Positions 2,688-39,049 are shown, counted from the stretch's first letter. The stretch is 39,049 nucleotides of DNA from Vicinamibacterales bacterium (GCA_036521515.1 DATDHP010000379.1:1-39049), one strand, 5' to 3'. Translations and numbers: made by a program. Notes: generated by a model not told the origin, from the sequence alone.

Positions 2688-2693
2688 TATGCT
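2688..2693 (+). promoter_or_regulatory. -10-like hexamer TATGCT exactly 6 nt upstream of the lysC ATG (leaderless-type promoter candidate)
   Basis: The sequence reads ttgctTATGCTgtcctcATG. No Shine-Dalgarno fits between the hexamer and the ATG. Confidence 0.35.
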
Positions 2694-2699
2694 GTCCTC

Positions 2700-3911
2700 A
2701 TGGCGGTCATAGTCCAGAAATACGGGGGCAGCAGCGTCGCCGACGTCCGGAAGCTCCGGCGGGTCGCCGAGCGCGTCATGCGCACCCAGGAACAGCGGCA
2801 CGACGTGGTCGTGGTCGTGTCCGCGATGGGCGACACTACCGACGATCTCCTCAGGATGGCCAAGCAGGTCTCGGCCAATCCCGATCGCCGCGAGCTCGAC
2901 ATGCTGCTCTCCGCGGGCGAGCGCATCTCGATGGCGCTGCTCTCGATGGCCATCCGCGAGCTGGGCGGCGACGCCATCAGCTTCACCGGCAGCCAGTCCG
3001 GCATCATCACCAACGACCGGCACGTCGACGCGCGCATCATCGAGGTGCGCCCGTTCCGCGTGCAGGACGAGCTCGCGCGCGGCAACATCGTCGTGATCGC
3101 CGGTTACCAGGGCGTGTCCTACAAGAAGGAGGTCACGACACTGGGCCGCGGCGGCAGCGACACGACGGCGGTCGCGATGGCCGCGGCGCTCGACGCAGAG
3201 TACTGTGAGATCTGCTCGGACGTTGATGGCGTCTATTCGGCCGACCCGCGCGTCGTCCCGGCGGCGCGGCGCATCGGCACCCTCTCCTACGAAGAGACGC
3301 AGGAGATGGCCGAAGCGGGCGCGAAGGTGCTGAACGCGCAGGCGGTGGAGTTTGCCAAGGAGAAGGGGATCGCCATTTACGCGCGCGCGACGAGCGGGCC
3401 GCTGCCCGGCCCGGATCCGTCGAGCGACGGCACCGTCGTACGCAAGAGCCCGCCGCGCCTGCCGGGCACGGTCGTTGGCGTCGCGAGCGAACGCGACATC
3501 ATCATGCTGGAGGGCGACACGCGTCCCGCGGATCTGCTCACCCTGCTCGACGAGCGCGGCGTGGCCGGCAAGCAGCTCCACGTCTTTTCCGACAGGACGA
3601 CGGTGGCCATCTCGCGCGAGAACCTGCACGACGAGGATCGGCTGCGCGCCGCGCTGGAGACGCGACTGGGCGGCCGCGCTCGCCTCGTCGACGGCCTCGC
3701 GGCGGTCAGCGTGGTCGGCGCCGGCATCAACGCCACCTACGCGAACGTACGCGCCGGATCCGAGACGCTCGCCGGCCTTGGGATTACGCCCGCCGGCACC
3801 GCGACGTCCTCCTTCCGCATCACGTGGATGATCCCGCGCGACCGCATCAACGACGCCGTGCGCGCCCTCCACGAGCGCTTCATCGAGTCGCAGCAGGCAT
3901 TGCTTCCCTAG
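2700..3911 (+). CDS. lysC: Aspartate kinase (403 aa, LysC-type with C-terminal ACT domains)
   Basis: [28 protein letters not shown] and [16 protein letters not shown], followed by an ACT-like C-terminal half. Confidence 0.92.
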
Positions 3912-3934
3912 CCGGCCCATCGGGCGCCCGGAGC

Positions 3935-3968
3935 CGCCCCACTCGCCCTACGCGCCCCACTCGCCCTA
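3935..3968. repeat. 16-bp direct repeat cgccccactcgcccta x2 in the lysC-to-M2-peptidase spacer
   Basis: Copies at 3935-3950 and 3953-3968 (period 18). The second copy abuts and overlaps the TATCAT hexamer at 3967-3972. Confidence 0.8.
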
Positions 3969-3972
3969 TCAT
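3967..3972 (+). promoter_or_regulatory. -10-like hexamer TATCAT exactly 6 nt upstream of the M2 peptidase ATG
   Basis: The sequence reads cccTATCATgccggtATG, with no SD. Confidence 0.35.
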
Positions 3973-3978
3973 GCCGGT

Positions 3979-5805
3979 ATGAAGTTCACCCCTTTGCTCC
4001 TTACGGCTGTACTCGGCGTCACGGCGGCCGCGTGCCGCAACGTTGTCGCCCCGGGCACCGACAGCGAATCCTCCGGGACCAACGTCGACGCTCCGACCTT
4101 CCTGGCGGAGGCCAACGCAACGATGCTTCGCCTCAGCAATGAGGCGAACCAGGCAGGGTGGGTGCAAAACGTTTTCATCACGCCCGACACCGAGGCAATG
4201 GCCGCGCGTGCCAACGAGGGGCTGATCACCGCGGTGACCCGGTTCGCGAAGACCGCGGCCAGCTACGACCACGTCCAGGGCCCGCCCGATGTTCGCCGCC
4301 AGCTCAACGTGCTCAAGAACGCGCTGACGATGGCGGCGCCCGCCGATCCGAAAGAGACGGCGGAGCTCACGCAGCTCGTAGCGTCGATGGAGGGCGAATA
4401 CGGCCGCGGCAAGTTCTGCCAGGACGGCGAGTCGGGCGAGGACTGCCTCGACATCGAGGAAATCACCGAGATCCTCGCCAAGGATCGCAATCCCGCCCGC
4501 GTGCGCGAAGCCTGGGAGGGCTGGCACACGATTTCGCCCCCGATGAAGAAGAGCTACACGCGGTTCGTCGAACTGTCGAACAAGGGCGCGAAGGAGCTTG
4601 GCTTCGCCGACACGGGGGCAATGTGGCGCTCGAAGTACGACATGCCGCCGGACGAGTTCACGAAGGAGCTCGATCGGCTGTGGGAGCAGCTTCGTCCGCT
4701 CTACCTCTCGCTGCACGCCTTCGTGCGCACGAAGTTGCGCGCGAAGTACGGCGACCAGGTACCGGCGGACGGTCCGATGCCGGCCCACCTGCTCGGCAAC
4801 ATCTGGGCGCAGGACTGGACCAACGTGGACGACATTGTCGGACCGGCAGGCGGCGGCCGCGCGACCTCGCTGACCGATACGCTGCGGGCGCGCAAGATCA
4901 CGCCGATCGAGATGACGCGCTTCGGCGAGCGGTTCTTCACCTCGCTCGGCTTCGAGGCATTGCCGCAGACGTTCTGGGAGCGATCGCTCTTCGTGAAACC
5001 GCGTGACCGCGAGGTCGTGTGTCACGCCAGCGCGTGGATCATCAACAACGTCGACGACCTGCGCTTCAAGATGTGCATCGACCAGACCGAGGAGGATTTC
5101 CGCGTCATCCATCACGAGCTGGGGCACGACTTCTACAGCCGCGCCTACAACCAGCAGCCGATGATCTTCCGCGACGGCGCGAACGACGGCTTCCACGAGG
5201 CGATCGGCGACACCATCGCGCTGTCCGTGACGCCGGAGTACCTGGTGAAGGTCGGCTTGCTCGATCGGGCGCCCGACGCGTCGGGCGACATTCCGCTGCT
5301 GCTGCGCGGGGCGCTCGAGCGGCTGGCCTTCCTGCCCTTTGGACTGGTCGTCGACCAGTGGCGCTGGCGTGTGTTCAGCGGCGAGATCACACCGGATCGC
5401 TACAACTCGGCGTGGTGGGAGCTGCGCGAGCGATACCAGGGCGTTCGGCCGCCCTCGCCGCGTGGGGAGGACTTTTTCGACCCCGGCGCGAAGTACCACG
5501 TGCCCGCGAACACCCCTTACGCGCGTTACTTCCTCGCGTCGGTGCTGCAGTTCCAGTTCCACCGCGCGCTGGCAAAAGAGGCCGGCTGCACGACGCCGCT
5601 GCACCGCTGCTCGATATACGCCAGCGCACCGGCCGGCAAACGGTTGAGGGCGACGCTCGCGCTGGGCCAGTCGCGGCCGTGGCCCGACGCGCTCGAGTCA
5701 CTCACCGGCCAGCGCCAGATGGACGCCACGGCGATGGCCGACTATTTCGCGCCGCTGAAGACGTGGCTCGACGAGCAGAACAAGGGACAGAAGGTGGGAT
5801 GGTAA
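3979..5805 (+). CDS. M2 family peptidyl-dipeptidase (angiotensin-converting-enzyme-like) lipoprotein
   Basis: Lipobox LGVTAAAC. Zinc site is HHELGH plus downstream HEAIGD. The length (608 aa) and N-terminal FLAEANATMLRLSNEANQAGWVQNVFIT are typical of bacterial ACE homologs. Confidence 0.85.
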   Translation: MKFTPLLLTAVLGVTAAACRNVVAPGTDSESSGTNVDAPTFLAEANATMLRLSNEANQAGWVQNVFITPDTEAMAARANEGLITAVTRFAKTAASYDHVQGPPDVRRQLNVLKNALTMAAPADPKETAELTQLVASMEGEYGRGKFCQDGESGEDCLDIEEITEILAKDRNPARVREAWEGWHTISPPMKKSYTRFVELSNKGAKELGFADTGAMWRSKYDMPPDEFTKELDRLWEQLRPLYLSLHAFVRTKLRAKYGDQVPADGPMPAHLLGNIWAQDWTNVDDIVGPAGGGRATSLTDTLRARKITPIEMTRFGERFFTSLGFEALPQTFWERSLFVKPRDREVVCHASAWIINNVDDLRFKMCIDQTEEDFRVIHHELGHDFYSRAYNQQPMIFRDGANDGFHEAIGDTIALSVTPEYLVKVGLLDRAPDASGDIPLLLRGALERLAFLPFGLVVDQWRWRVFSGEITPDRYNSAWWELRERYQGVRPPSPRGEDFFDPGAKYHVPANTPYARYFLASVLQFQFHRALAKEAGCTTPLHRCSIYASAPAGKRLRATLALGQSRPWPDALESLTGQRQMDATAMADYFAPLKTWLDEQNKGQKVGW

Positions 5806-5891
5806 TGGACTCCCCTCAGGTCTTCGATCTTCGGTGACTACGGGCCGAGGACTATCGGAGACCGTGGACCGTAGACCGGACCGGAGACCGA

Positions 5892-6386
5892 ATGCCGGGG
5901 GCGATCGACATTGCGCTGATCGAAGACTGGGAGCAGCTGCGACCGATCCTGCTCCCGTTCCTCGTCCGCGTTGGCGCCGCCGCGGTGTGCGGCGCGGTGA
6001 TCGGCCTCGAGCGCGAATTGAAGGGAAAGCCGGCCGGATTCAGGACGAACATCCTGATCTGCCTCGGCTCGGCGATCTACATGACCGTCGGGTTGCTGCT
6101 CGTCCGCACCAGCGGCGGCGACTTCGACCCGACGCGCATCGCCGCACAGGTCGTGACCGGCATCGGCTTCCTCGGCGCGGGCTGCATCCTGCAGGCGGGC
6201 AAGCGTGTCACCGGGCTGACCTCCGCCGCCACCATCTGGGTGGTGGCCAGCATCGGCCTCGTGGCCGGTGCCGGCTTCCCGCTGCTGGCGTTCATCTCGT
6301 CGTGGATGGTGGTGATTACGCTCGCCGCGCTTGGCACGATCGAAAAGCGCTATCTCGATCCCGAGAAGTCCGATGATTCGCCCTGA
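5892..6386 (+). CDS. MgtC/SapB family membrane protein
   Basis: AVIGLERELKGKPAGFRTNILICLGSAIYM and GIGFLGAGCIL are MgtC family signatures. The protein is 164 aa with about 4-5 TM segments. Confidence 0.85.
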   Translation: MPGAIDIALIEDWEQLRPILLPFLVRVGAAAVCGAVIGLERELKGKPAGFRTNILICLGSAIYMTVGLLLVRTSGGDFDPTRIAAQVVTGIGFLGAGCILQAGKRVTGLTSAATIWVVASIGLVAGAGFPLLAFISSWMVVITLAALGTIEKRYLDPEKSDDSP

Positions 6387-6387: not shown

Positions 6388-6559
6388 CATCGTTGATTAT
6401 CGATCTTTGATTGTTGAATGGTTGTTGATTGTTGAATGGTGAATATCGATTCTCGTTGTCGATTGTCGATTGTCGATCCTCAATTCAACGTTTCGTCAAT
6501 CGAATCAACAATCAACAATCAACAACGAATCAATAATCAAGAATCAGAAATCAACGATG
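6388..6559. repeat. AT-rich TTGATTG/CAATCAA palindromic element, copy 1
   Basis: Perfect 11-bp termini: catcgttgatt (6388-6398) and aatcaacgatg (6549-6559). Internal arms are ttgattgttgaatggttgttgattgttgaatgg versus caatcaacaatcaacaatcaacaacgaatc. My hand count gives roughly 36% G+C, against GC-rich flanks. It lies between the convergent mgtC-family and nuclease genes. Confidence 0.9.
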
Positions 6560-10612: not shown

Positions 10613-11431
10613 TCAGGAAAGTGCCGGAACTTCGCCATTCAAGTACGCGGACAGCCGGCCCGGCGCGAACTGCACTCCCGTGTAGAACGGCCCGAACTCC
10701 GCGAACTTCGCCGAAGCTTCGTCGAACCGCATCTCGTAGATCAACTTCTTGAAGACGAGCGGATCCTTCGCGAAGAGATCGACGCCCCATTCCCAGTCGT
10801 CGTAGCCAATCGATCCCGAGATCACCTGCGTCACCTTGCCCGCGTAGCCGCGGCCAATCATGCCGTGCTCGCGCATCATGCTCGCGCGGCGCTCGAAGGG
10901 CTCGGTGTACCAGTTCTCCGCTTCTCCGCGACGCTTGTTCATCGGGTAGAAGCAGACGTAGCGCGCCTGCGGCAGATCGAGGAACAGGCGGCTCATCACG
11001 CGCTGCCGCTGCGTTTCCATCTCGGCGTCGAACGCCTGCTCGAACTCCTCGCTGCCCGGCTTCAGCTTCGCACCCAGTTGCTCGTGGATCTTCGCGGTCA
11101 TCTCGTACATGCCCAGCTCCACGATCGACACGTACGACGAGGTCGCCTCGAGCCCGTCGTGCAGCTCGGTGCGAGACAGCGCGAGCTGCGCCTGCGCGAG
11201 CTGCTCGAAGTCCCGGCGGAAGCAGATGAACATCAGGTCAGCCTTGTGCCCCAGCATCTGCACGTAAGCCGTGGCGCCGGCGTCGGGGACCGTGAGCGCG
11301 GCTACCGCTTCCTCGGCCAGGCGCTCGCGCTCCGCCGTCTTCATTCCGCGCAGCCGATCCCACCGGACGCGGTACATCAGGTGCAGCAGGCTCCAGCCTT
11401 CCAGCGTCTCCGGAACTACTGGGTTGTGCAT
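10613..11431 (-). CDS. Chlorite dismutase family protein / coproheme decarboxylase (HemQ/ChdC-like)
   Basis: 272 aa. GWSLLHLMYRVRW, YVSIVELGMYE, ARYVCFYPMNKRRGEAENWY, MREHGMIGRGYAGKVTQVISGSIGYDDWEWGVDLF. Confidence 0.85.
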   Translation of the reverse strand: MHNPVVPETLEGWSLLHLMYRVRWDRLRGMKTAERERLAEEAVAALTVPDAGATAYVQMLGHKADLMFICFRRDFEQLAQAQLALSRTELHDGLEATSSYVSIVELGMYEMTAKIHEQLGAKLKPGSEEFEQAFDAEMETQRQRVMSRLFLDLPQARYVCFYPMNKRRGEAENWYTEPFERRASMMREHGMIGRGYAGKVTQVISGSIGYDDWEWGVDLFAKDPLVFKKLIYEMRFDEASAKFAEFGPFYTGVQFAPGRLSAYLNGEVPALS

Positions 11432-11453
11432 CGGATCATGTTAACTCTCAAAC

Positions 11454-12998: not shown

Positions 12999-13017
12999 TT
13001 CTACGACCTCGACCCAT

Positions 13018-13165
13018 TATCGATTGGGGATTCTCGAATCTTGATTCGTTGTTGATTCTCGATTGTTGATTGTTGGGCTGCCGAATCGACTCGGCCATAA
13101 CTCAGCAGTCGCCAATCAACAATCAACAACGATTCAACAATCGAAGATCAGAAATCAAGAATCGA
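13018..13165. repeat. AT-rich TTGATTG/CAATCAA palindromic element, copy 2
   Basis: Left arm cgattggggattctcgaatcttgattcgttgttgattctcgattgttgattgttggg. Right arm ccaatcaacaatcaacaacgattcaacaatcgaagatcagaaatcaagaatcgac. It shares the ttgttgattgttgatt and gaatcagaaatcaa-type strings with 6388-6559. Confidence 0.85.
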
Positions 13166-18562: not shown

Positions 18563-19408
18563 TTACGCGGAAGGAAACTGCTTTACCAGAATCGCCCGTG
18601 TGTAGACGAGCCCGAAGCCGAGCCGCTCGAACGTCCGCTGGGACGTGCTGCCTGGTTCCGTGGTCGCGATGGCGAGGTCGGCGTGACCCGCGGCCTCGGC
18701 GAGCGCTTGCCCCACGAGCGCGGTCTGCACCCCGCGGCGGCGAAACCGCGGCAAGGTGGCGGTCCCGAAGATGCCAAGCACGCTGTCCCGCACGAACGTG
18801 GCCCCTCCCCCTGCGGCGACCCGGTCGGCCCAGACCAGGTAGCGCGCGATCGCCGGATGGCAGAACTGCCGCATGACGCTACGGATGTGCGAGATGGCTT
18901 CGGGCGCTGCGGGCGCCGCCGCCCCGGCCGCGGCGAAGCCGTCCGCTACCACCTGCACCCACAAGCCGTCGGTCTCGGGTGTCGTTCGCTCGACTCGGAG
19001 GCCGGCCACCAGGGGGGACAGTGGCGCCACGTCGGCCGACAGCGCGCGGGCGAGCTCGTTCTCGAAGCCCTGAAGCACGAAACGACGTGCCGACAGGCGC
19101 GGGGCGACGTCGGATGCCGCAAGCGGACAGAGCTCGATGTGCGCCGGCGCCTTGTGCGCGGCATAGAACGCTTCGACCGCATCGAGGTCCGCCTCGCTCA
19201 CCGATGCCCCGACGCCGAGACCGAGCATCTTGTTCAGCGGCGAGCCCGCGACGCCGAACAGCGCGCGGCCGCCGCCCACGTCGAGCGACGCAAGACCCGA
19301 TCGCGCGCCGATCGCGCCCGCCTCGGCACAGAAGTCGATCTCCGCGCGCTCGATCCGCCGGGCCAGTGCGCAGGTGACGTGCAGAGGCGGGTGATATCGT
19401 ACGGACAT
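18563..19408 (-). CDS. GNAT family N-acetyltransferase
   Basis: The C-terminal half reads GIFGTATLPRFRRRGVQTALVGQALAEAAGHADLAIATTEPGSTSQRTFERLGFGLVY, which is the acetyl-CoA binding R/Q-x-x-G-x-G/A region. GAGGAG lies 10 nt upstream of the ATG. Confidence 0.75.
   Translation of the reverse strand: MSVRYHPPLHVTCALARRIERAEIDFCAEAGAIGARSGLASLDVGGGRALFGVAGSPLNKMLGLGVGASVSEADLDAVEAFYAAHKAPAHIELCPLAASDVAPRLSARRFVLQGFENELARALSADVAPLSPLVAGLRVERTTPETDGLWVQVVADGFAAAGAAAPAAPEAISHIRSVMRQFCHPAIARYLVWADRVAAGGGATFVRDSVLGIFGTATLPRFRRRGVQTALVGQALAEAAGHADLAIATTEPGSTSQRTFERLGFGLVYTRAILVKQFPSA
19392..19400 (+). promoter_or_regulatory. Extended -10-like TGaTATCGT exactly 6 nt upstream of the DUF1028 ATG
   Basis: The sequence reads gGTGATATCGTacggacATG. 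The same 11-mer GTGATATCGTA recurs at the same spacing upstream of vapB (37782-37792). It lies inside the first codons of the divergent GNAT gene. Confidence 0.4.
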
Positions 19409-20399
19409 GCTGAAGCAGCTCCTCGTCTGCCTGGCGGTCGTCGCGAGCGGTCATCCGTCATATGCCGATCCGCTCGTACACACGTTCTCCATTGTGGCGC
19501 GAGACCCCGCCACGGGGGATCTCGGCGTCGCCGTGCAGTCGCACTGGTTTTCCGTCGGTTCACTCGTGACGTGGGCCGAAGCCGGCGTCGGCGCTGTGGC
19601 GACACAGTCATTCGTCGATCCGTCCTATGGCACGCGCGGGTTGGACCTGATGCGGGCCGGTCGCGCTGCGCCGCAGGCGCTCGAGGAGCTCGTCGCCCTC
19701 GACATGATGCGCGACGGGCGGCAGGTCGCGATGATCGATGCGCACGGGCGCGTGTCGGCCTACACGGGCAAGTCGGCGATCGCGGCGGCCGGGCACCGCG
19801 TGGGCCGCGAGTACGCGGTGCAGGCGAACCTCATGGCCAACGACAAGGTCTGGCCGGCCATGGCTGCCGCCTTCGAGTCAACCCGCGGCGATCTCGCCGA
19901 CCGCATGCTCGCCGCGCTCGATGCCGGGCAGGCTGCCGGCGGAGACATTCGCGGGAAGCAGTCGGCGGCCCTGTTGATCGTTCGCGGGAAGGGCACCGGG
20001 CGTCCGTGGGCCGGCGCCGACCGCGCGTTCGATCTGCGCGTTGACGATCACGCCGACCCGATTCGAGAGCTGCGCCGCCTGGTGCGCCTGCAGCGCGCCT
20101 ACACCCACGCCAACCAGGGCGATGAGCTCATGACGCAACAGAAGATCGCCGACGCGTTGAAGGAATACGCGGCCGCTGGCCGCCTCGCGCCGGAGATCGT
20201 CGAGCTGCCGTTCTGGCAGGCCGTCACGCTCGCCTCCATTGGACGACTGGCCGAGGCCGAGCCCATCTTCAAAGCGGTGTTTGCAAAGGAACCCGTCTGG
20301 GCCGACCTCGTCGCGCGCCTGCCGGCAGCGGGTCTCCTGCCGGACGACGCCGCACTGATCAAGCGCATCCAGGCACTAGCACCCAGCCGGCGCCGATGA
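19407..20399 (+). CDS. DUF1028 family (Ntn-hydrolase fold) secreted protein
   Basis: A signal peptide is followed by TFSIVARDPATGDLGVAVQSHWFSVG, the DUF1028 signature with a putative N-terminal Thr nucleophile. Confidence 0.8.
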   Translation: MLKQLLVCLAVVASGHPSYADPLVHTFSIVARDPATGDLGVAVQSHWFSVGSLVTWAEAGVGAVATQSFVDPSYGTRGLDLMRAGRAAPQALEELVALDMMRDGRQVAMIDAHGRVSAYTGKSAIAAAGHRVGREYAVQANLMANDKVWPAMAAAFESTRGDLADRMLAALDAGQAAGGDIRGKQSAALLIVRGKGTGRPWAGADRAFDLRVDDHADPIRELRRLVRLQRAYTHANQGDELMTQQKIADALKEYAAAGRLAPEIVELPFWQAVTLASIGRLAEAEPIFKAVFAKEPVWADLVARLPAAGLLPDDAALIKRIQALAPSRRR

Positions 20400-22485: not shown

Positions 22486-22564
22486 TCAACTCCCAACTCC
22501 CAAACTCCCACCAACTCCCAAGCTTCGCACAGCCCGACGTTGGGAGTTGGGCGTTGGGAGTTGA
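22486..22564. repeat. CTCCCAA/TTGGGAG low-complexity hairpin in a divergent spacer
   Basis: Arms tcaactcccaactcccaaactcccaccaactcccaa (22486-22521) and ttgggagttgggcgttgggagttga (22540-22564). It is followed by gcagcc..ccacacatatgtgg..ctgc, which overlaps the first in-frame ATG of the transpeptidase. Confidence 0.85.
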
Positions 22565-25280: not shown

Positions 25281-25545
25281 GTTCACACTTCCGGGTTCTC
25301 GGTTCGTGTTCAGGTTCGGTTCACGGTTCCGGGCTCGTGGTGCGTGGTTCGTCCCCGGCTACGCCGGGGAGGCGCCCCGATGAAGAACCGGGAACGCCGA
25401 ACCTCGAACCTCGAACCCCGAACCCCGAACCCCGAACCCCGAACCTCGAACCTCGAACCTCGAACCTGGAACCTCGAACCCCGAAGATCGAACCGCGAAC
25501 TGAACCTGAACACGAACAGAGAAGCGAGAACCGAGAAGCGTGAAC
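25281..25545. repeat. GTTCGG/CCGAAC long palindromic element, copy 1 (right arm expanded)
   Basis: Left terminus gttcacacttccgggttctcggttcgtgttcaggttc. Centre ccccggc-tac-gccgggg (25353-25369). The right arm is a run of cgaacc(t/c) units ending gaacctgaacacgaacagagaagcgagaaccgagaagcgtgaac. Confidence 0.9.
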
Positions 25546-25551
25546 TAGAAT
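25546..25551 (+). promoter_or_regulatory. -10-like TAGAAT 7 nt upstream of the histidine kinase ATG, abutting the palindrome terminus
   Basis: The sequence reads gcgtgaacTAGAATtgcgctgATG, with no SD. Confidence 0.35.
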
Positions 25552-25558
25552 TGCGCTG

Positions 25559-26455
25559 ATGACCCGCCGTCAGAAGGCGATTGCGTTCTTCGTGGCGCTC
25601 TGCGTGCTGCTGGTGGCCGCGGCGGTCACGCTGAACATCACCTGGATCGTCATCAATGCGCGGCGCGTCACCCCGCTCATCCTCGGCATCATCCTCTTCG
25701 CCGTCATCATTGCCGGCCTGATCATCTACACGGTGTTCCTCGTGCTCGAGATCAAGCGCAACGAGGAGCACGAGAGCTTCATCAACTCCATCACGCACGA
25801 GCTGAAAACGCCGATCGCGTCGATACGGTTGTATCTCGAGACGCTGCAGTCGCGTCACATGAGCGACGACCAGCGGCGCGAGTTCTACGGAGTGATGCTC
25901 GCCGACGCCGAGCGCCTGCACCGCACCGTGGACCAGGTGCTCAAAGCGGGCATGGCGGCCCAGAAACCGAGGATCCTGGCGCGCGCGTCCGTGGACATGG
26001 CGATGCTCGCGCGCGAATGCGTCGACCTCGCGCTGCTCCGCCATCACCTGCAGGCGGGGGCAATCGATCTCGAGACGCACGATGACGGCCCGCTCGTCGT
26101 CCGGGGCGATGCCGAGGAACTGCGTACGGTCGTCACCAACCTGCTGGACAACGCGGTGAAGTACTCGCCGGACACGGTGCGCGTCTCTGTTTCGGTGGCG
26201 GCGCCGGCGCCCCACACCGTGTGGCTGCGGGTGCAGGATCGCGGGGTCGGCATCCCGAGGAAGCAGTTGAAGCGGATCTTCAACCGCTTCTACCGGGTGC
26301 AGGCGCGCGGGCCGAAGAGCGTGAAGGGCACGGGCCTCGGGCTCTACATCGTGCGCTCGATCGCCCGGGCGCACGGCGGCCGCGTGTTCGCCCACAGCGA
26401 GGGCGAGGGCCGCGGCTCGACCTTCACCCTGGAGCTGCCGCGGCTCGCTTCATGA
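25559..26455 (+). CDS. Sensor histidine kinase, intramembrane-sensing type (two TM helices, no extracytoplasmic, HAMP or PAS domain)
   Basis: TM1 is AIAFFVALCVLLVAAAVTL and TM2 is LILGIILFAVIIAGLIIYTVFLVL. The H-box SITHELKTPIASI follows directly. The N and G boxes are LLDNAVKYS and GTGLGLYIVRSIA. Confidence 0.88.
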   Translation: MTRRQKAIAFFVALCVLLVAAAVTLNITWIVINARRVTPLILGIILFAVIIAGLIIYTVFLVLEIKRNEEHESFINSITHELKTPIASIRLYLETLQSRHMSDDQRREFYGVMLADAERLHRTVDQVLKAGMAAQKPRILARASVDMAMLARECVDLALLRHHLQAGAIDLETHDDGPLVVRGDAEELRTVVTNLLDNAVKYSPDTVRVSVSVAAPAPHTVWLRVQDRGVGIPRKQLKRIFNRFYRVQARGPKSVKGTGLGLYIVRSIARAHGGRVFAHSEGEGRGSTFTLELPRLAS

Positions 26456-28737: not shown

Positions 28738-29015
28738 GTTCACACTTCTCGGTTCTGCCTTCTCGGTTCGTGTTCAGGTTCACGTTCAGTTCCGGGTTCG
28801 GAGTTCGGAGTTCCAGTTCCGGGTTCGGGGTTCGGGGTTCGAGGTTCGGAGTTCGGAGTTCGGAGTTCCGAGTTCGGAGTTCGGAGTTCGGGCACCTCGA
28901 CCCAGCCGGAGGCCATGCGAGCCTTGAACCTCGAACCGGCGCCCCGAACTGCGAACCGCGAACCGCGAACCGAACTTGAACACGAACGGAGAAGCGAGAA
29001 CCGTGAAGCGGGAAC
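28738..29015. repeat. GTTCGG/CCGAAC long palindromic element, copy 2 (left arm expanded)
   Basis: Left terminus gttcacacttctcggttctgccttctcggttcgtgttcaggttc, followed by a run of (g)gttcgg/gagttcgg units. Unique centre near 28890-28923. Right terminus cttgaacacgaacggagaagcgagaaccgtgaagcgggaac. The termini closely match those of 25281-25545 in the same orientation. Confidence 0.9.
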
Positions 29016-29055
29016 GATATAGACTTAACTCCTCCCCGCCTCGGAGGCGTCCCCC

Positions 29056-30789: not shown

Positions 30790-30798
30790 TGATATCCT
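30790..30798 (+). promoter_or_regulatory. Extended -10-like TGaTATCCT 8 nt upstream of the htpX ATG
   Basis: The sequence reads gagTGATATCCTgagccattATG. It shares GTGATATC with the DUF1028 and vapB upstream regions. Confidence 0.35.
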
Positions 30799-30806
30799 GA
30801 GCCATT

Positions 30807-31685
30807 ATGGGAAAACGCATCTTCCTGTTCCTGCTCACGAACATCGTCGTCGTCCTGACGCTCACCGTGGTGTTGAGCGTGCTCGGCATCGGCAACTATG
30901 TCGCTGCTGACGGCGGCGTCGATATCGGGGCGCTGCTCGTATTCTGTCTGGTTTGGGGCATGGGCGGATCGCTCATGTCGCTGCAGATGTCCCGCTGGAT
31001 CGCCAAACGTGCCACTGGCGTGCAGCTCGTGAACGGCCAGACTGGCAACCACGACATGGACCGGCTGTACAACTCGGTGCGCCGGTTGACGCAGCAGGCG
31101 AATCTGCCGATGCCGGAGGTCGGCGTCTACGATTCGCCGGAAGTCAATGCGTTCGCCACCGGCCCGAGCAAGAGCCGGAGTCTCGTGGCCGTGTCAAGCG
31201 GGCTGCTGCGCTCGATGCGCCAGGAGGAAGTGGACGGCGTGCTCGCGCACGAAGTGGCCCACATCGCCAACGGCGACATGGTCACGATGACGCTGCTGCA
31301 GGGCGTGATCAACGCTTTCGTGATGTTCCTGGCGCGCGTCATCGCGCACCTCGTGGCGCGCTCGGACGACCGCAATGGCGGCGGGACATACTTCCTCGTG
31401 GTCATCGTGCTGCAGATCGGCCTCGGCATCCTGGGCTCGCTCGTGACAGCGTGGTTCTCGCGCCACCGCGAGTTCCGTGCGGACTACGGCGGAGCGACGC
31501 TTGCCGGCAAGCCGCAGATGCTGGGCGCGCTGCGCCGGCTGGCGATGAACCGCGAGGCCGTGGACACGTCGCACCAGGCGCTCGCCACGCTCAAGATCAA
31601 CGGAACGCGCGGCTGGATGGTCTTCTTCTCGACGCACCCCCCGCTCGAGCAGCGCATCGCCGCCCTCGAACGGGCCCAGATCTGA
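30807..31685 (+). CDS. htpX: Protease HtpX (M48 family)
   Basis: MGKRIFLFLLTNIVVVLTL, HEVAHIANGDM (HExxH), and the C-terminal FSTHPPLEQRIAALE. Confidence 0.92.
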   Translation: MGKRIFLFLLTNIVVVLTLTVVLSVLGIGNYVAADGGVDIGALLVFCLVWGMGGSLMSLQMSRWIAKRATGVQLVNGQTGNHDMDRLYNSVRRLTQQANLPMPEVGVYDSPEVNAFATGPSKSRSLVAVSSGLLRSMRQEEVDGVLAHEVAHIANGDMVTMTLLQGVINAFVMFLARVIAHLVARSDDRNGGGTYFLVVIVLQIGLGILGSLVTAWFSRHREFRADYGGATLAGKPQMLGALRRLAMNREAVDTSHQALATLKINGTRGWMVFFSTHPPLEQRIAALERAQI

Positions 31686-32212: not shown

Positions 32213-32218
32213 TACACT
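32213..32218 (+). promoter_or_regulatory. -10-like TACACT exactly 6 nt upstream of the GTG at 32225 (sulfurtransferase)
   Basis: The sequence reads ggTACACTtacgggGTG. The GTG start gives VHTTLISTGTLAAQL, matching the short N-termini usual for SseA-type rhodaneses. Confidence 0.35.
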
Positions 32219-32224
32219 TACGGG

Positions 32225-33097
32225 GTGCATACGACACTGATCTCGACCGGGACGCTTGCCGCTCAGCTCGGCGGCGGCTGGGCTGTTGTCGACTGCCGCT
32301 ACGACCTCAAGGACGAGGCGTGGGGACGCCGCCAATACCTGGAGTCGCACATTCCCGGCGCCGTGTACGCCAGCCTTTCGCGCGACATGTCTACCGTCCC
32401 CGACGGGACGAACGGCCGCCATCCGCTTCCCTCGCCCGAGGCAATGACGCAGACCTTCAGCCGGCTCGGCATCGGCCCCGGTACGCAGGCCGTGCTCTAC
32501 GACCAGGACGACGGGCGATACGCCAGCCGGCTCTGGTGGATGCTGCGTTACATGGGGCACCAGGCAGCGGCCGTGCTCGATGGCGGCTGGGCGAAGTGGA
32601 CCCGAGAGGGCCGGCCGGGCCGCGGCGGGGAGGAGAAACGGTCCGCTGCCACGTTCGAAGGGACGCCGCAACCGGGCGCCCGCTTGCGCGTAGAGGAGGT
32701 GGAGAGGCTTCTCGGACGGCCCGACGCGCTGCTGGTGGACGCGCGCGCGCCGGAACGTTACGAAGGGCGCAACGAGACGATCGATCGCGCCGCCGGTCAC
32801 ATCCCCGGGGCGGCCAATCATTTCTATCAGTGGAACGTGGGCGCCGACGGCACGATGCGCCCGCCGGATCAGCTCCGGGCCCGGTTCGAACAGCTCCTGA
32901 GCGGCCGGCCCGCCAAGCAGGTCGTGATGTACTGCGGCTCCGGCGTCACCGCATGCCAGAACCTTCTTGCCATGGAGCACGCCGGCCTGCGCGGCGCGCA
33001 CCTCTACCCGGGCTCATGGTCGGAGTGGTCGAGCGATCCCGCGAGGCCGATCGAAACGGCTCAAGGCTCAAAGCTCAAGGCTCAAGGCACAACGTAA
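32225..33097 (+). CDS. sseA: Tandem-rhodanese sulfurtransferase (thiosulfate/3-mercaptopyruvate, SseA-like)
   Basis: YLESHIPGAVYASL, RLWWMLRYMGH, active-site loop MYCGSGVTAC, and YPGSWSEWS. An alternative ATG lies at 32192. The last 10 codons (AQGSKLKAQGTT) read into a heptamer repeat. Confidence 0.85.
   Translation: MHTTLISTGTLAAQLGGGWAVVDCRYDLKDEAWGRRQYLESHIPGAVYASLSRDMSTVPDGTNGRHPLPSPEAMTQTFSRLGIGPGTQAVLYDQDDGRYASRLWWMLRYMGHQAAAVLDGGWAKWTREGRPGRGGEEKRSAATFEGTPQPGARLRVEEVERLLGRPDALLVDARAPERYEGRNETIDRAAGHIPGAANHFYQWNVGADGTMRPPDQLRARFEQLLSGRPAKQVVMYCGSGVTACQNLLAMEHAGLRGAHLYPGSWSEWSSDPARPIETAQGSKLKAQGTT
33059..33088. repeat. Heptamer tandem repeat GCTCAA(G/A) x4.3
   Basis: gctcaag gctcaaa gctcaag gctcaag gc. 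It lies in the overlap of the two convergent ORF ends. Confidence 0.9.
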
Positions 33098-33524
33098 GAG
33101 ATTCAGGCATCACCGTCACCGTAAACCCATGCTGGTTGGGCGCCGCGTACTGGCGGTGGTGGCGGATGCGCGAGTACGGGATCGTCACCAGCTCCTGCGC
33201 CTGCTCGTCCGGCTCTGGTTGGATCACGATCGTCATCTCGCCAGCCGCGGCTGCGAGCTGCTCGGCCACCTGCGCGTCCGCAAACCCGATGACGACCACC
33301 TCGCCGCTTGCAAGCCTATGTGTCTCGTAGCTGCGATAGCGGCGCGTGGCGAAGAGCGGTGCGTTGGGGAGTGCGGGCGAGTACGTGAAGCCGTAGACGC
33401 CGACCGGCAGCGCGTTGACGCCGTTGCCTTCTTCCTCAGAGGAGACCAGGCGCACGGCGTGCGCCTGGCGGAGTGCCTCCTGGGCCGCAGTCGCCGGCGT
33501 GTTCGCGTATGTGACTCTGCTCAT
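33075..33524 (-). CDS. Hypothetical protein (149 aa), no family recognised
   Basis: The ORF has GC-rich third positions and normal composition (MSRVTYANTPATAAQEALRQAH...VVVIGFADAQVAEQLAAAAGEMTIVIQPEP...). A perfect TATAAT lies 9 nt upstream of the ATG. Confidence 0.55.
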   Translation of the reverse strand: MSRVTYANTPATAAQEALRQAHAVRLVSSEEEGNGVNALPVGVYGFTYSPALPNAPLFATRRYRSYETHRLASGEVVVIGFADAQVAEQLAAAAGEMTIVIQPEPDEQAQELVTIPYSRIRHHRQYAAPNQHGFTVTVMPESLTLCLEP

Positions 33525-33533
33525 TGGCTAGGG

Positions 33534-33539
33534 ATTATA
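33534..33539 (-). promoter_or_regulatory. Perfect TATAAT -10 box 9 nt upstream of the ATG at 33524
   Basis: The minus strand reads ctgccTATAATccctagccaATG. It sits in the 37-nt gap after msrA. No SD. Confidence 0.45.
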
Positions 33540-34947: not shown

Positions 34948-37181
34948 AACCTCACGTTGTAAAGAAGCTTGAAATTGCGGCCCATCTCGGGCACCAGCTC
35001 CTTGAGCAGCGAAAGGTGGTTCCGGTAGAGCTCGTCTGTCACGTTGTCCACTCGGAACGTGATTGTGTTCGCCATGCGGTCTGTGCCGAACGTGTACGAC
35101 GTAAAGAGTTTGAGGAGGCCGTAGCCGTCGGTTGGCGTCTCGGCGCCGAACACGCGATCCTGCTTCGCGGCTGCGATGACCTCGCCGCCTGCCTGGAACG
35201 CGTTGCGCTGGTATCGCCCACCCGCGCGCACCCGGAAGGGCGGAATCCTGGGCAGGGGATCGTCGCCGTCCTTGAGCGTGCCGCGCACGTAATCGGCGCC
35301 GAGCTCGATGACAAAGCCCCCACCCACCTGGAAGTCGGAATGCGCCTCGATCCCCTGCAGGACGCTGTCGGCGCTGACGAACTCGATCAGCTGGAACTCC
35401 TCGATCTCTTCGTCCGAAAAGTCGAGCTCGCGGTTTGGAAAGCGCGCCTCGAACTCAGGCAGACGCGCCTCGAATTGCTCGACGGTGAGCGGATTTCGGA
35501 AGATGTACCTGCTGATGTCGTTGCGGAAGTAGGTCAGCTCGCCCGATGCGCGGGACGACCGCCAGCGCAGTGACACGTCGAAGCCCAGGGCGTGCTCGGG
35601 ATCAAGGTCCGGGTTGCCGATTTCGATCGCGAAGTTGCCCGGGTGCACGCCGAGGAAGAACATCTCCTCGAGCGCCGGGCTGCGCGCCGCGCGCGCCAGA
35701 CTCAACGCGAATGTCAGCCTGTCGTCCGCCGCGGCCGGGCGAAGCAGCAAACCGACCGACGCCGACCCGGTGGTGAAGTTGCGTTCACCCTCGTTGAGCG
35801 GGTTGTACCGGCTGTGGTCCAGGCGGCCGCCAAACTGGAAGGTCACGTGCGGCCACGTCACCTCTTCGTAGACGAACGCCGCGAATCCTCGCTGATCCAC
35901 GGGGGGCGACAGCGCCTCTTCGCCCTCGGCATCGAACGAGCGATCCAGGAACCAGCCGCCGGCGCTTCCCTTCAGGCGGCCGACCGCACGGTGCGATCCC
36001 ATCAGCTCGACCTCGTTGGTGTCGTTCGTGAACCGCGTGCCGACCACCTCCCCGTCGAGCTCGTCGTGCCGGTATCGCCGGAGCGCCAGCGTCGCGCGGT
36101 ACGAGTCGATCGCGCCGGTCAGGCTCTGCGCGCCGGCGCGCAGCGTCACTGCATGACGACGCGGTGTCAGCTGGATCTGGCCGCTCTCGACCAGCGGAAT
36201 CCCGTACTTCGTGTCGTCGTACCCGTAACTGCCGCCGAAGTAGGCGTTGGTGCCGGTCCACGACGCCCCGATGTTGCCGAAGCCGTTTCGCGACTGCGAG
36301 TTCGGCACGGTGCCCTCCGGCGTGTCCACGTCGCCCGAGCGGCGGCCGCCGCCGCCGGCGTGAAGGGCCACCTTCCCGTTGCCGATGTGCACGTCTCCTG
36401 CGCCAGCTGCTTCCATGGCGGCGGAACCGGCATCGAAGGTGAAATTCCCCGACGCCCCCATCATCGGACTGGTTGGGATCTCGTCGGTGATCACGTTCAC
36501 GAGTCCGCCGATGGCATTCGCGCCGTAGAGGAGCGTCGCGGGGCCGCGCACCACCTCGATTCGTTGAGCCGCCGCCGGGTTGATGGCCACACCGTGATCG
36601 CCGGACTGACTGGACACGTCGCCGAGACGCTGCCCGTCCTGAAGAATCAGCACCCGATCGCCGTCGAGCCCGCGAATCACCGGCCGCGCCGGCGCCGGAC
36701 CGAAGCTGCGTGCGGCCACGCCCGGCTGATTCTCCAGGGTCGCGCCGAGCGACATCCCCAGTTGCTTGGTCAACTCCTGGCCTGCGAGCACCGCGGTCGG
36801 CTGGAACGCCTCGAACTGGCTGCGGGCGCCGGCGCTGACGGATGTGACCTCCTCGAAATGCAGCTCCGGATCCACCGTGATGTCCCGGAGCTCAGAAGAC
36901 GGTGCTGTGACCTCGGTGCGACGCGACGAGTACCCCGAGGAGCGCACCGAGAGGTGATAGGACCCCGGCAGGACGTTATCGAACGTGAAGGTGCCATCAG
37001 GGCCCGACTTTGTTTCCCGCCGCAACTCCTCGATGAGCACGACGGCGCCGGGAATCGGGTCACCCGAGAGTGAATTGATCAAACGGCCTGACACCGCCGT
37101 GCCTGCCTGCGCTGCCGCCGCCGTCGAGTGCGACAGGACAACAGCCAGTACGGCACACGCGGCAAGAAGCGTGCGGTCCAT
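34944..37181 (-). CDS. TonB-dependent receptor with N-terminal CarboxypepD_reg domain
   Basis: Signal peptide, then VSGRLINSLSGDPIPGAVVLI...GSYHLSV. The plug region reads PVIRGLDGDRVLILQDGQRLGD...IEVVRGPATLLYGANAIGGLVNVIT. The C-terminal barrel ends YNVRF. GGAGG lies 4 nt upstream of the ATG. Confidence 0.9.
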   Translation of the reverse strand: MDRTLLAACAVLAVVLSHSTAAAAQAGTAVSGRLINSLSGDPIPGAVVLIEELRRETKSGPDGTFTFDNVLPGSYHLSVRSSGYSSRRTEVTAPSSELRDITVDPELHFEEVTSVSAGARSQFEAFQPTAVLAGQELTKQLGMSLGATLENQPGVAARSFGPAPARPVIRGLDGDRVLILQDGQRLGDVSSQSGDHGVAINPAAAQRIEVVRGPATLLYGANAIGGLVNVITDEIPTSPMMGASGNFTFDAGSAAMEAAGAGDVHIGNGKVALHAGGGGRRSGDVDTPEGTVPNSQSRNGFGNIGASWTGTNAYFGGSYGYDDTKYGIPLVESGQIQLTPRRHAVTLRAGAQSLTGAIDSYRATLALRRYRHDELDGEVVGTRFTNDTNEVELMGSHRAVGRLKGSAGGWFLDRSFDAEGEEALSPPVDQRGFAAFVYEEVTWPHVTFQFGGRLDHSRYNPLNEGERNFTTGSASVGLLLRPAAADDRLTFALSLARAARSPALEEMFFLGVHPGNFAIEIGNPDLDPEHALGFDVSLRWRSSRASGELTYFRNDISRYIFRNPLTVEQFEARLPEFEARFPNRELDFSDEEIEEFQLIEFVSADSVLQGIEAHSDFQVGGGFVIELGADYVRGTLKDGDDPLPRIPPFRVRAGGRYQRNAFQAGGEVIAAAKQDRVFGAETPTDGYGLLKLFTSYTFGTDRMANTITFRVDNVTDELYRNHLSLLKELVPEMGRNFKLLYNVRF

Positions 37182-37245
37182 AGGGCCTCCGGAAAAATTT
37201 GACGATCAGCCTGACGTCAGTGGCCTCCGCGCGCGCGGAGGAACT

Positions 37246-37608
37246 TCAGGCAGCCGGAGGCGAGCGGAGCGGAGGCTGCGCCGCCAGGGCGGCGGGCGTA
37301 ACCGAGAAGACTTCGGGACGAAGACGCAGGCTGGATTCAACAGCCGGCGCAGGCTGGTATGCGGCGTCCGGCTTCGTCCGGAGCGACCGCGCCGATTGGC
37401 ACGCAACACACTCGAGCGGATGAAGAGCCGCTCCTCCCGCGTCGCCCTGGATGCGGTGCGCGGACGCATCGTGCTCCACGGAGGCGGGAAAGTCGTCGTG
37501 GCCGGTGGCCGCGTGACTCAGTGCGCCGAGCGTCGTCGCCGCCATGCTCGTGAAGAGCACGCAAGCGGTGAGGACGGACCATCGGCGGATCCTGAACAGG
37601 CGGAGCAT
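37246..37608 (-). CDS. Small secreted His-rich protein with CxxC motif, upstream partner of the TonB receptor
   Basis: Signal-like MLRLFRIRRWSVLTACVLFTSMAATTLGALSHA, then HDDFPASVEHDASAHRIQ...LHPLECVACQS. It is loosely reminiscent of DUF2946-type proteins found next to TonB receptors (low confidence). A canonical promoter lies upstream. Confidence 0.5.
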   Translation of the reverse strand: MLRLFRIRRWSVLTACVLFTSMAATTLGALSHAATGHDDFPASVEHDASAHRIQGDAGGAALHPLECVACQSARSLRTKPDAAYQPAPAVESSLRLRPEVFSVTPAALAAQPPLRSPPAA

Positions 37609-37618
37609 GGGCCCTCAC

Positions 37619-37648
37619 AGCGTAGCCACGGTGTTTCGGGAGTGTCAA
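37619..37648 (-). promoter_or_regulatory. Sigma70-type promoter TTGACA-N18-TACGCT, 10 nt upstream of the ATG at 37608
   Basis: The minus strand reads aacTTGACActcccgaaacaccgtggcTACGCTgtgagggcccATG. The -35 is a perfect consensus and the implied leader is only about 3 nt. Confidence 0.5.
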
Positions 37649-37721
37649 GTTCGAGAAGGGGTGTTCAAGAAAGCGAGTGGTCCCGGAACCAGAGCGTCCG
37701 AACATGTCGATCCCGGGCGGT

Positions 37722-37749
37722 CGTGATCCAGCGAACACGCGTGATCCAG
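37722..37749. promoter_or_regulatory. Direct repeat CGTGATCCAG x2 upstream of vapB (candidate antitoxin operator)
   Basis: Copies at 37722-37731 and 37740-37749 (period 18). Further GTGAT cores lie at 37766 and 37783, the last inside the -10-like element. Confidence 0.3.
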
Positions 37750-37782
37750 GCGAGCAGGGTGAACGGTGATGGCTTGTGCATG

Positions 37783-37791
37783 TGATATCGT
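37783..37791 (+). promoter_or_regulatory. Extended -10-like TGaTATCGT exactly 6 nt upstream of the vapB ATG
   Basis: The sequence reads catGTGATATCGTattttcATG, with no SD. The 11-mer and its spacing are identical to those at 19391-19401. Confidence 0.4.
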
Positions 37792-37797
37792 ATTTTC

Positions 37798-38109
37798 ATG
37801 GCAAAAGAGCCTGTTTCTGTGACACTCGGCCGCGAGAACCTGTTGTGGCTTCGCGGGCGCGCGGCGCGCAGCAAGCGGCGGAGCCTCAGCGACGCGCTCG
37901 ACGAGATCGTCACGGCCGCGCGTCTCGGCGGCCAAGTCGCAGGCTCGATCCGGTCGGTGGTGGGCACGGTGGACATCGCGGCAGACGACCCGGACCTGGA
38001 GCGCGCCGACCAGTATGTGCGCGGGGAGTTCGAGGCGTCGCTGTCGCGGCCACTCGTGGTGCACGAGGACAAAGGCCGATACGGAAAGAAGAAGTCCCGT
38101 CGTGGCTGA
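37798..38109 (+). CDS. Type II antitoxin, ribbon-helix-helix (VapB-like)
   Basis: The N-terminal beta-strand plus helices read VSVTLGRENLLWLRGRAARSKRRSLSDALDEIV. 103 aa. It overlaps the downstream PIN gene by 8 nt. Confidence 0.6.
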   Translation: MAKEPVSVTLGRENLLWLRGRAARSKRRSLSDALDEIVTAARLGGQVAGSIRSVVGTVDIAADDPDLERADQYVRGEFEASLSRPLVVHEDKGRYGKKKSRRG

Positions 38110-38506
38110 ACCGGCCGCCGTCACCGACACGCACGCGCTCGTGTTCCACGCGGCCGGCGGCGGTCGCCTCGGCCCGAAGGCGCGGGCGCATTTCGTCGCG
38201 GCCGAGCAGCGGGATGCCCTCGTCTACGTTCCTGTCGTCGTGATTTGGGAAGTCAGCCTGCTCGCGCGCGCCGTTCGCGTCAACCTGCATCGACCGGTGC
38301 GCGCGTTCTTCGACGACCTCTTCAGCAATCCCGCGTACCAGCCCCACGGCCTCGATGCCTCCCAGGTCTTCGATGCCGACGAGCTTCGGTTCACCCGCGA
38401 TCCCTTCGATGCGCTCGTCTGCGCGGCGGCGCGCGACCTGGGGCTGCCGCTCATGACGCGTGACGCCGCGATCGCGGCTGCCGGCGTCGTGCCGACGCTC
38501 TGGTAG
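38102..38506 (+). CDS. vapC: PIN-domain ribonuclease toxin VapC
   Basis: GTG start at 38102. The four acidic PIN positions are visible: VTDTHALV, VVIWEVSLL, RDPFDALV and LMTRD. Confidence 0.8.
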   Translation: MAEPAAVTDTHALVFHAAGGGRLGPKARAHFVAAEQRDALVYVPVVVIWEVSLLARAVRVNLHRPVRAFFDDLFSNPAYQPHGLDASQVFDADELRFTRDPFDALVCAAARDLGLPLMTRDAAIAAAGVVPTLW

Positions 38507-38513
38507 TTCTCAC

Positions 38514-38566
38514 CAACCAGCCGAGGGCTCTGCCCTTGATATCCCAGCAGAGCCCTCGGCTGGTTG
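38514..38566 (+). terminator. Perfect 20-bp stem / 13-nt loop hairpin 8 nt after the vapC stop
   Basis: caaccagccgagggctctgc (38514-38533) pairs with gcagagccctcggctggttg (38547-38566). No U-tract follows, so an intrinsic-terminator role is uncertain. Confidence 0.45.
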
Positions 38567-38581
38567 CCAGTATCTACTCCA

Positions 38582-38793
38582 CCCCAACGCGCAAAGTCCG
38601 CGCGTTGGGGGCCCCGGCCTGGCCGCGCTCCGCGCGGCTAGGACCGCTATGCGGTCAGACGCAACGAGTACGAAATTCGCGTTCCGGACCGCATAGCGGT
38701 CCAATGCACAACGCTCAATGCTCAATGACCAATGACAAACGCCGGAGGCAGGCTCGGCGGCATTGGGCGTTGGGCATTGGGCATTGAGCATTG
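38582..38793. repeat. Array of four further independent hairpins before mmsA
   Basis: ccccaacgcgc/gcgcgttgggg (38582-38610). gccgcgc/gcgcggc (38622-38638). ggaccgctatgcggtc/gaccgcatagcggtcc (38641-38702). CAATG/CATTG low-complexity arms (38702-38743 versus 38759-38793). Confidence 0.85.
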
Positions 38794-38800
38794 CTGCAGA

Positions 38801-38806
38801 TATACT
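38801..38806 (+). promoter_or_regulatory. -10-like TATACT exactly 6 nt upstream of the mmsA ATG
   Basis: The sequence reads gcagaTATACTcgctccATG, with no SD. Confidence 0.35.
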
Positions 38807-38812
38807 CGCTCC

Positions 38813-39049
38813 ATGTCGACCCCTGCTGCCGCCCATCCCGCGTCGGCTGCCCTGACGGCGATCCCGCTGTGGATCAACGGACGATCCGTCACGTCCAACA
38901 GCACCCGACGCGGCGAAGTCACCAACGCCGCGACCGGGCAGGTCGTGCGCGTCGTGCCGTTCGCCGACGCACGCGACGTCGACGCCGCCGTCGCCGCCGC
39001 CAGGGCGGCCTTCCCCGCGTGGCGCGCCACGCCACCGCTGCGGCGCGCC
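38813..39049 (+). CDS. mmsA: CoA-acylating methylmalonate-semialdehyde dehydrogenase (aldehyde dehydrogenase family), N-terminal 79 codons; continues past the right edge
   Basis: MSTPAAAHPASAALTAIPLWINGRSVTSNSTRRGEVTNAATGQVVRVVPFADARDVDAAVAAARAAFPAWRATPPLRRA is a typical MmsA/ALDH N-terminus. Confidence 0.8.
   Translation, partial: MSTPAAAHPASAALTAIPLWINGRSVTSNSTRRGEVTNAATGQVVRVVPFADARDVDAAVAAARAAFPAWRATPPLRRA

Follow-up and report, generated by a model that had tools for sequence, protein, structure and literature searches.

In seven genes of a 39,049-nucleotide stretch of bacterial DNA (hereafter the window, meaning the whole stretch), a hexamer of the form TANNNT ends exactly 6 nucleotides (nt) before the start codon. 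The same geometry recurs well above background across the genome, is confined to genes able to have their own promoter (the heads of transcription units) and is conserved in position among orthologues. With a probability of roughly 85%, we read these TANNNT boxes as leaderless-type promoters reduced to a –10 element, which would serve about 6–10% of the genes. The window is contig C379, the longest of the 540 contigs of a metagenome-assembled genome (MAG) with an assembly of 4.02 Mb, 67% G+C and an estimated completeness of 85.6%. The host is an uncultured soil acidobacterium of the class Vicinamibacteria, order Vicinamibacterales; nearly all orthologues of the aspartate kinase encoded in the window, at 72–90% identity, come from MAGs labelled Vicinamibacterales or Acidobacteriota gp6. 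In the following, Nx is the number of nucleotides between the 3' end of TANNNT and the start codon, so that N6 corresponds to offset –12 and N9 to offset –15.

The seven sites had been proposed in an earlier note on this DNA; all of them are present as described, each with a 6-nt spacer, and the gene labels given there are essentially right by family match (AA_kinase, Peptidase_M2, chlorite-dismutase family, DUF1028, rhodanese and aldehyde dehydrogenase). The sites are:

2688–2702, plus strand: lysC, aspartate kinase (403 amino acids, aa); TATGCT at 2688–2693, N6, ATG at 2700; Pfam AA_kinase from residue 3.
3967–3981, plus strand: M2 peptidase (608 aa); TATCAT at 3967–3972, N6, ATG at 3979.
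11429–11443, minus strand: hemQ-like gene of the chlorite-dismutase family (272 aa); TAACAT at 11443–11438, N6, ATG at 11431.
19392–19409, plus strand: DUF1028 protein (330 aa); TGaTATCGT with TG at 19392 and TATCGT at 19395–19400, N6, ATG at 19407.
32213–32227, plus strand: rhodanese or sseA-like sulfurtransferase; TACACT at 32213–32218, N6, GTG at 32225.
37783–37800, plus strand: VapB-like antitoxin (103 aa); TGaTATCGT at 37783–37791 (TATCGT at 37786–37791), N6, ATG at 37798.
38801–38815, plus strand: mmsA-like aldehyde dehydrogenase, running off the contig end; TATACT at 38801–38806, N6, ATG at 38813.

Six of the start codons are ATG and one is GTG, and none of the 6-nt spacers contains a Shine-Dalgarno (SD) 4-mer. 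The start codon is the first one of its open reading frame (ORF) at five of the seven sites, the exceptions being sseA and mmsA. In the M2 peptidase, which matches Pfam Peptidase_M2 with E = 2e-218 from residue 36 onwards, ATG 3979 comes first among the start codons of the ORF and also ranks best in coding potential, and the DUF1028 ORF opens just 12 nt 5' of ATG 19407. The starts that can be disputed, those of sseA, mmsA and the vapB-like gene, are all backed by the N-termini of orthologues. In the orthologues of sseA the protein starts with M-F/H-T-T-L at the aligned position, 6–12 nt past the opening of the ORF, which favours GTG 32225 over ATG 32192; those of mmsA have ORFs opening 0–12 nt upstream of aligned residue 1, in support of ATG 38813, and the 81 nt 5' of this ATG are a non-coding heptamer repeat; for the vapB-like gene, 15 of 15 homologues align from ATG 37798. 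The mmsA search (E <= 1e-18) returned two relatives only, which fix the start and are too few to assess conservation. N-terminal conservation of this kind indicates that a start codon is the right one and says nothing on the translation of a leaderless mRNA.

As to the surroundings of these genes, the DUF1028 ATG (19407, plus strand) and that of a divergent 281-aa GNAT acetyltransferase (19408, minus strand) share one CATG (19406–19409), so that the upstream signals of each gene lie within the first codons of the other. Contig C84:1-141 repeats window positions 38909–39049 and carries mmsA onward (open frame of 479 aa), and the two contigs abut.

One explanation of the window pattern is chance, combined with the freedom of the earlier note in choosing start codons. 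The window holds, on both strands, eight occurrences of TANNNT at N6 before RTG (ATG or GTG), an unremarkable raw count that is within the range of shuffled sequence (4.3 +/- 2.3); moreover, the sseA and mmsA starts are not the first of their ORFs, and our coding-potential caller, used alone, misplaced the starts of sseA and of the vapB-like gene, for which it chose a downstream GTG. However, seven of the eight occurrences fall on gene starts, which make up ~1.6% of the RTG sites (binomial p ~2e-12), the three disputable starts are upheld by orthologue N-termini, and the enrichment extends genome-wide when starts are called blind to the motif. Chance is thereby refuted and retains next to no credence. 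The window is nevertheless richer than the genome as a whole, with 7 of ~35 genes at exact N6 versus a genome average of 3–4%.

For the genome-wide analysis, genes were called from stop-to-stop ORFs with an iteratively trained in-frame dicodon log-odds score, the distribution of which is cleanly bimodal. This gave 2609 genes, the start of each being the candidate with maximal downstream coding score irrespective of upstream motifs, and the background per offset was taken as the TANNNT mean over –60 to –21. The histogram of TANNNT-to-start distances, which the earlier note had proposed as a check, was computed over the 4.02-Mb assembly; it peaks sharply at –12 and trails off as far as –15. The hexamer is found at –12 in 80 genes, at –13 in 50, at –14 in 45 and at –15 in 30, against a background of 12.2 (Poisson p = 7e-38 at –12 and ~1e-5 at –15). 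At –16 (N10) it is barely above background, with 19 genes, and at –11, with 18, it is at background, as it is from –10 onwards. The background itself, 12.2/2604 or 0.47%, agrees with the earlier expectation of well under 1% of genes per fixed offset. Internal controls, consisting of 38,230 in-frame and 11,334 out-of-frame ATG/GTG codons, have TANNNT in ~0.1% at every offset. When the single best start is used the excess amounts to 161 genes (6%), and when all starts within 4 nats of the best are allowed the counts become 101/75/61/45 versus ~23, an excess of ~200 genes (8%); for unit-heading genes the strict motif, applied to noisy starts, gives a net rate of ~5–10%. The description of the feature as widespread is therefore borne out as far as genome-wide enrichment is concerned, and has to be reduced as to extent, since a minority of ~6–10% of genes is involved.

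Under the promoter reading, TANNNT would be the –10 element of a housekeeping sigma-70-type promoter, from which RNA polymerase would start at the start codon's initial A or G (spacer of 6–7 nt) or 1–3 nt before that codon (spacer of 8–9 nt). The resulting mRNA would have neither a 5' leader nor an SD site, and its translation would follow the leaderless route, whereby a ribosome with bound initiator tRNA recognizes a 5'-terminal AUG or GUG. Genes of this kind would exist alongside a canonical class with a GGAGG-type SD and a large class lacking both signals. A transcription start site (TSS) fixed 6–7 nt past the –10 element and barred from the inside of the ORF would account for the hard edge at N6 and for the tail towards longer spacers. 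Both the start of transcription at the start codon and the leaderless mode of translation are inferred from sequence.

A peak at –12 could also be an artefact of stop codons, if TAA or TAG, either of the upstream gene or opening the ORF, mimics the TA of TANNNT. Some of the data go in this direction: the small bump at –12/–13 seen in operon-internal genes is lost when hexamers beginning with TAA or TAG are excluded, the subset of genes with an unambiguous start has an in-frame periodicity (27, 14 and 5 genes at –12, –15 and –18), and the TAACAT of hemQ is itself an in-frame stop. As the unambiguous-start subset is biased towards in-frame TAA/TAG, the tests were repeated with TAYNNT (Y being C or T), which cannot be a stop codon. 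The peak persists with this motif, with 42 genes versus 7.2 at –12 (p = 6e-19) and, out of frame, with 22 at –13 and 28 at –14; in addition, the background is the same in frame as out of frame (12.6 vs 12.0), and it is in divergent genes, to which no upstream gene contributes a stop codon, that the peak is strongest. Stop codons were therefore rejected as a general explanation, a minor part of the peak being all that they explain, and we regard them as a highly implausible source of the pattern.

The hexamers in the peak resemble –10 elements. The commonest are TAGAAT, TACAAT, TATAAT, TAGGAT and TATCAT, and positions 4 and 5 are A in 48% and 55% of cases, versus 27% and 38% in control TANNNT hexamers further upstream. 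An extended TGn precedes 35 of 275 hexamers, a modest 2.3-fold excess over the 15 expected. The start codons behind the boxes are ATG or GTG in 93% of cases, with TTG depleted (odds ratio 0.44, p = 0.005). When all hexamers at –12 are ranked without bias, just two families emerge, one SD-like (AAGGAG, AGGAGG, CGGAGG, GGAGGA) and one –10-like (TAGAAT, TAAGAT, TAGCAT, TATAAT), in agreement with the proposal of the earlier note that two distinct initiation classes coexist. Among 366 well-defined starts, TANNNT at N6–N9 is present in 15% (control 1.9%; the 15% includes some bias from stop codons), an SD 4-mer in 28% (control ~9%), both signals in 1.4% and neither of them in 58%. The use of SD sequences is low genome-wide, a GGAG, GAGG or AGGA 4-mer being present at –16 to –4 in 25–28% of starts over a background of ~10%.

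The distribution of the boxes depends on gene context. TANNNT at N6–N9 precedes 0.3% of the genes overlapping a co-directional gene upstream of them, ~7% of the co-directional genes separated by at least 60 nt and 13% of the divergent genes; in the last group the share reaches 22% for gaps of 25–59 nt and 44% for gaps of 0–24 nt (overlapping versus divergent, Fisher p = 9e-15). The small bump of operon-internal genes at –12/–13 disappears with TAYNNT and thus reflects the neighbour's stop codon. The motif is, in other words, confined to genes that can have a promoter of their own.

Position is also maintained in orthologues. For lysC, 32 of 71 distinct orthologue upstream regions have TANNNT at N6–N9 (16 at N6, eight at N7, three at N8 and five at N9), and offsets further upstream have two at most each; the hexamers differ (TATGCT, TACCAT, TAGACT, TATTCT, TATGAT) and the flanks are unalignable. 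A phylum-level lysC search at E <= 1e-80 matched only the window's own gene. For the hemQ-like gene, TANNNT is at exact N6 in 11 of 31 orthologues from Vicinamibacteria and CATAAT is at N6 in four more, one subclade has AGGAGG at SD distance in place of the box, and outside Vicinamibacteria, mostly in other classes of Acidobacteriota, the box is found in only 1 of 24. A box that is constant in position and changing in sequence argues for function. The orthologues of DUF1028, sseA and mmsA are mixed, some having a box at N6–N8 and others GGAGG or GAGGA; in the case of DUF1028 it is TACAAT or TATATT at N6–N7, or a GGAGG-type SD. Indeed, orthologues of one and the same gene (DUF1028, loci L081–L095; hemQ, L213–L243; mmsA, L129) alternate between a –10 box at N6–N7 and a GGAGG-type SD, which means that the initiation mode has switched repeatedly within the order.

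The same pipeline, applied to 400-kb samples of relatives, gives a –12 peak of 10 versus 1.4 in another family of the order and of 19 versus 2.0 in a distant member of the phylum; as relative G107 was over-called (572 genes in 400 kb), only peak-to-background ratios are meaningful for the relatives. The signal is weak and smeared in relative G011. There is no clear peak in relative G017 (50% GC), an uninformative sample in which the caller, based on third-position G+C (GC3) and dicodons, performs poorly. Near-identical lysC/hemQ sequences of the Vicinamibacterales type are also present on public MAG contigs labelled Acidimicrobiia, Bifidobacteriaceae, Gemmatimonadaceae, Polyangiaceae, Verrucomicrobiae and Alphaproteobacteria, odd labels that are probably binning or labelling errors. 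The distance between lysC and hemQ is ~1–2 kb in several relatives and 7.5 kb in the window.

Conservation is also found in the vapB-like family, where homologues from many families have TANNNT at exact N6 before the aligned ATG in 14 of 15 cases. The 103-aa protein has no Pfam or NCBIfam match, and the vapB label is due only to the PIN-domain gene that follows at 38102–38506 (PIN, E = 1.5e-6) and to the conservation among homologues. In the latter the hexamer is embedded in ACGATATCGT-type palindromes, and the palindrome-like element around the –10 box (window positions 37760–37800; loci L294–L307) reads ATACGATATCGTAT in some of them; an 11-mer, GTGATATCGTA, is common to the upstream regions of the vapB-like and DUF1028 genes (19388–19400 in the latter). 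In type II toxin-antitoxin modules, autorepression by the antitoxin at palindromes is established, and the vapB-like palindrome is probably, as a prediction from its sequence, an antitoxin operator. It could then be argued that in the vapB-like gene, and possibly in DUF1028, TATCGT is primarily half of an operator palindrome and that its distance from the ATG is a matter of repressor geometry, as the inclusion of the hexamer in the ATACGATATCGTAT-type palindromes of homologue upstream regions would suggest. Yet the two roles are compatible, operators normally overlapping the –10 box; homologues with TATATT, TATAGT, TATGGT, TATGAT or TATTTT still keep N6; and toxin-antitoxin modules of Mycobacterium tuberculosis are leaderless by experiment in 32 of 37 cases (PMC3898074), to which the 14 of 15 vapB-like homologues at N6 are a parallel. 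A purely operator-based origin of the spacing appears very improbable.

A further alternative keeps the mRNAs leadered, with promoters further upstream, and regards the hexamer as an A/T-rich translation signal other than SD, such as an S1-binding or unstructured element. Leadered initiation without SD must indeed be common, given the 58% of well-defined starts with neither SD nor TANNNT, and no –35 element backs the identity of the boxes as promoters. On the other hand, a translation signal should serve operon-internal genes too, yet the boxes are found in 0.3% of overlapping genes versus 13% of divergent ones, a dependence on gene context that argues against a translational enhancer. The motif is, furthermore, specifically TAnAAT-like and not A/T-rich in general, its spacing has a hard limit at N6, and orthologues exchange the box for GGAGG rather than adding one to the other. 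A translation signal is accordingly improbable, though less so than the operator.

Several points weigh against the interpretation of the boxes as leaderless promoters, or at least against the figures attached to it. The –35 signal is absent, since the position matrix upstream of the hexamers is flat and consensus scans do not exceed shuffles, and mmsA alone among the seven genes is flagged, with a –35-like hexamer (TGGGCA, 17-nt spacer); promoter identity hence depends on the –10 box by itself. The starts given by the caller are noisy, 13% of them being TTG, so that all percentages are rough and probably underestimates. The orthologue counts of the lysC, hemQ and vapB-like series are phylogenetically non-independent, and the conservation of the vapB-like hexamer could partly reflect operator function.

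Besides the seven genes at N6, the near-misses at N7–N10 reported for the window are present as described, and so are the examples of SD sequences given for contrast. Those of defined position are:

25546–25561, plus strand: histidine kinase; TAGAAT at 25546–25551, N7, ATG at 25559.
30793–30809, plus strand: htpX-like M48 peptidase; TGaTATCCT with the hexamer at 30793–30798, N8, ATG at 30807.
33522–33539, minus strand: 149-aa ORF; TATAAT at 33539–33534, N9, ATG at 33524.
1782–1799, minus strand: marginal feoA-like small ORF; TAGGAT at 1799–1794, N9, GTG at 1784.
37186–37190, minus strand: TonB receptor, SD contrast; GGAGG 4 nt before ATG 37181.
29043–29047, plus strand: 63-aa ORF, SD contrast; GGAGG 8 nt before ATG 29056.

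The mRNA of the histidine kinase is probably leaderless or endowed with a 1-nt leader. The 149-aa ORF has no family match in searches with Pfam/NCBIfam-type models. The feoA-like ORF has a low coding score (0.23), and the AGGA within its TAGGAT could equally be a weak SD. The remaining near-misses are mocR, with CATTAT at N7, the small secreted protein, with a box at N10, and the M14 gene, in which the box is at N10 from the called start and at N7 from a TTG.

Some repeated sequences accompany these genes. The sequence GTGATATC precedes htpX and has 45 copies in the genome. Period-7 tandem repeats of up to 15 copies fill the intergenic regions (6446–6555, 13016–13129, 22487–22563, 25385–25545, 28788–28976, 38701–38793 and others), often as inverted pairs that are potential long hairpins, such as AGTTCGG x15 facing GAACCGC x7 and CAATGCT facing GGCATTG x5. 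The array at 38701–38793 stops 7 nt short of the mmsA –10 box, and similar heptamer arrays are located upstream of lysC orthologues in other Vicinamibacterales.

Comparable signals have been described in other bacteria. In the survey of Zheng et al. (2011, BMC Genomics; PMC3160421), TA-led leaderless genes carry a TANNNT whose first T is ~12 nt upstream of the start, leaderless genes were predicted in three of three Acidobacteria genomes at 13.3% (range 9.7–19.4%), and orthologues switch mechanism. The signal found here is the same, with inner positions of low information, as in high-GC genomes, and an SD-led class alongside; the 6–10% obtained here with a strict motif is at or just below their range, and positional conservation is followed here gene by gene (lysC, hemQ and vapB-like). 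Group C of GeneMarkS-2 (Lomsadze et al., 2018; PMC6028130) comprises genomes, mostly of Actinobacteria and Deinococcus-Thermus, in which a Pribnow box lies 6–8 nt from operon-first genes and a ribosome-binding site lies at the same distance from the others, with 25–50% of transcripts predicted to be leaderless. The –12 hexamer enrichment likewise returns both classes, Pribnow and SD, while the share seen here appears lower by the strict motif and noisy starts, so that the group assignment may or may not apply.

In M. tuberculosis (Cortes et al., 2013; PMC3898074), TANNNT is located 7–12 bp upstream of 73% of mapped TSSs, there is no –35 consensus and 26% of those genes that have a primary TSS are leaderless. 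The likeness consists in a –10-only TANNNT lacking a –35 element and in the use of both ATG and GTG starts, the TSS having been mapped on the start codon in that species. The differences are that the mycobacterial case was mapped experimentally and ours is built on sequence, that 26% refers to genes with a primary TSS and ~6–10% to all genes, and that TGn is somewhat commoner here (13% vs 7%). In Deinococcus deserti, according to the citation of de Groot et al. (2014) in PMC6028130, 167 of the 262 genes whose starts were mapped are leaderless; there too, as far as that citation goes, the –10 box adjoins the start codon in a lineage that is not actinobacterial, and leaderless genes are a majority, unlike the minority found here. 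With respect to the canonical sigma-70 promoter, a TTGACA-like –35 element at 16–18 nt from the –10 was not detected here. As just three Acidobacteria genomes were to be had in 2011, Vicinamibacteria are unlikely to have been among those surveyed then, and a literature search found no transcription start-site map for any acidobacterium.

The feature is, in conclusion, a mode of expression that was known and had been predicted for the phylum, with no new mechanism, and it is real, conserved and moderately frequent in an order in which it has not been specifically described. With it, the case made from sequence for leaderless genes reaches another class of Acidobacteriota, and a major soil lineage gains a promoter-recognition rule. 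It also matters for annotation, since gene callers that assume SD sequences will misplace starts in Vicinamibacterales MAGs. The orthologue series of lysC, hemQ and DUF1028 are clean, and switches between leaderless and SD initiation can be placed on a tree. More tentatively, and at somewhat less than even odds, leaderless expression in Vicinamibacterales may be a selected, gene-specific trait: lysC, hemQ and the vapB-like family keep N6 over order-level divergence with hexamer and flanks drifting, sister lineages have switched to GGAGG, and more than half of the genes have neither signal. If this is true, an abundant and almost uncultured soil lineage would operate three parallel modes of initiation, one of them uncharacterized.

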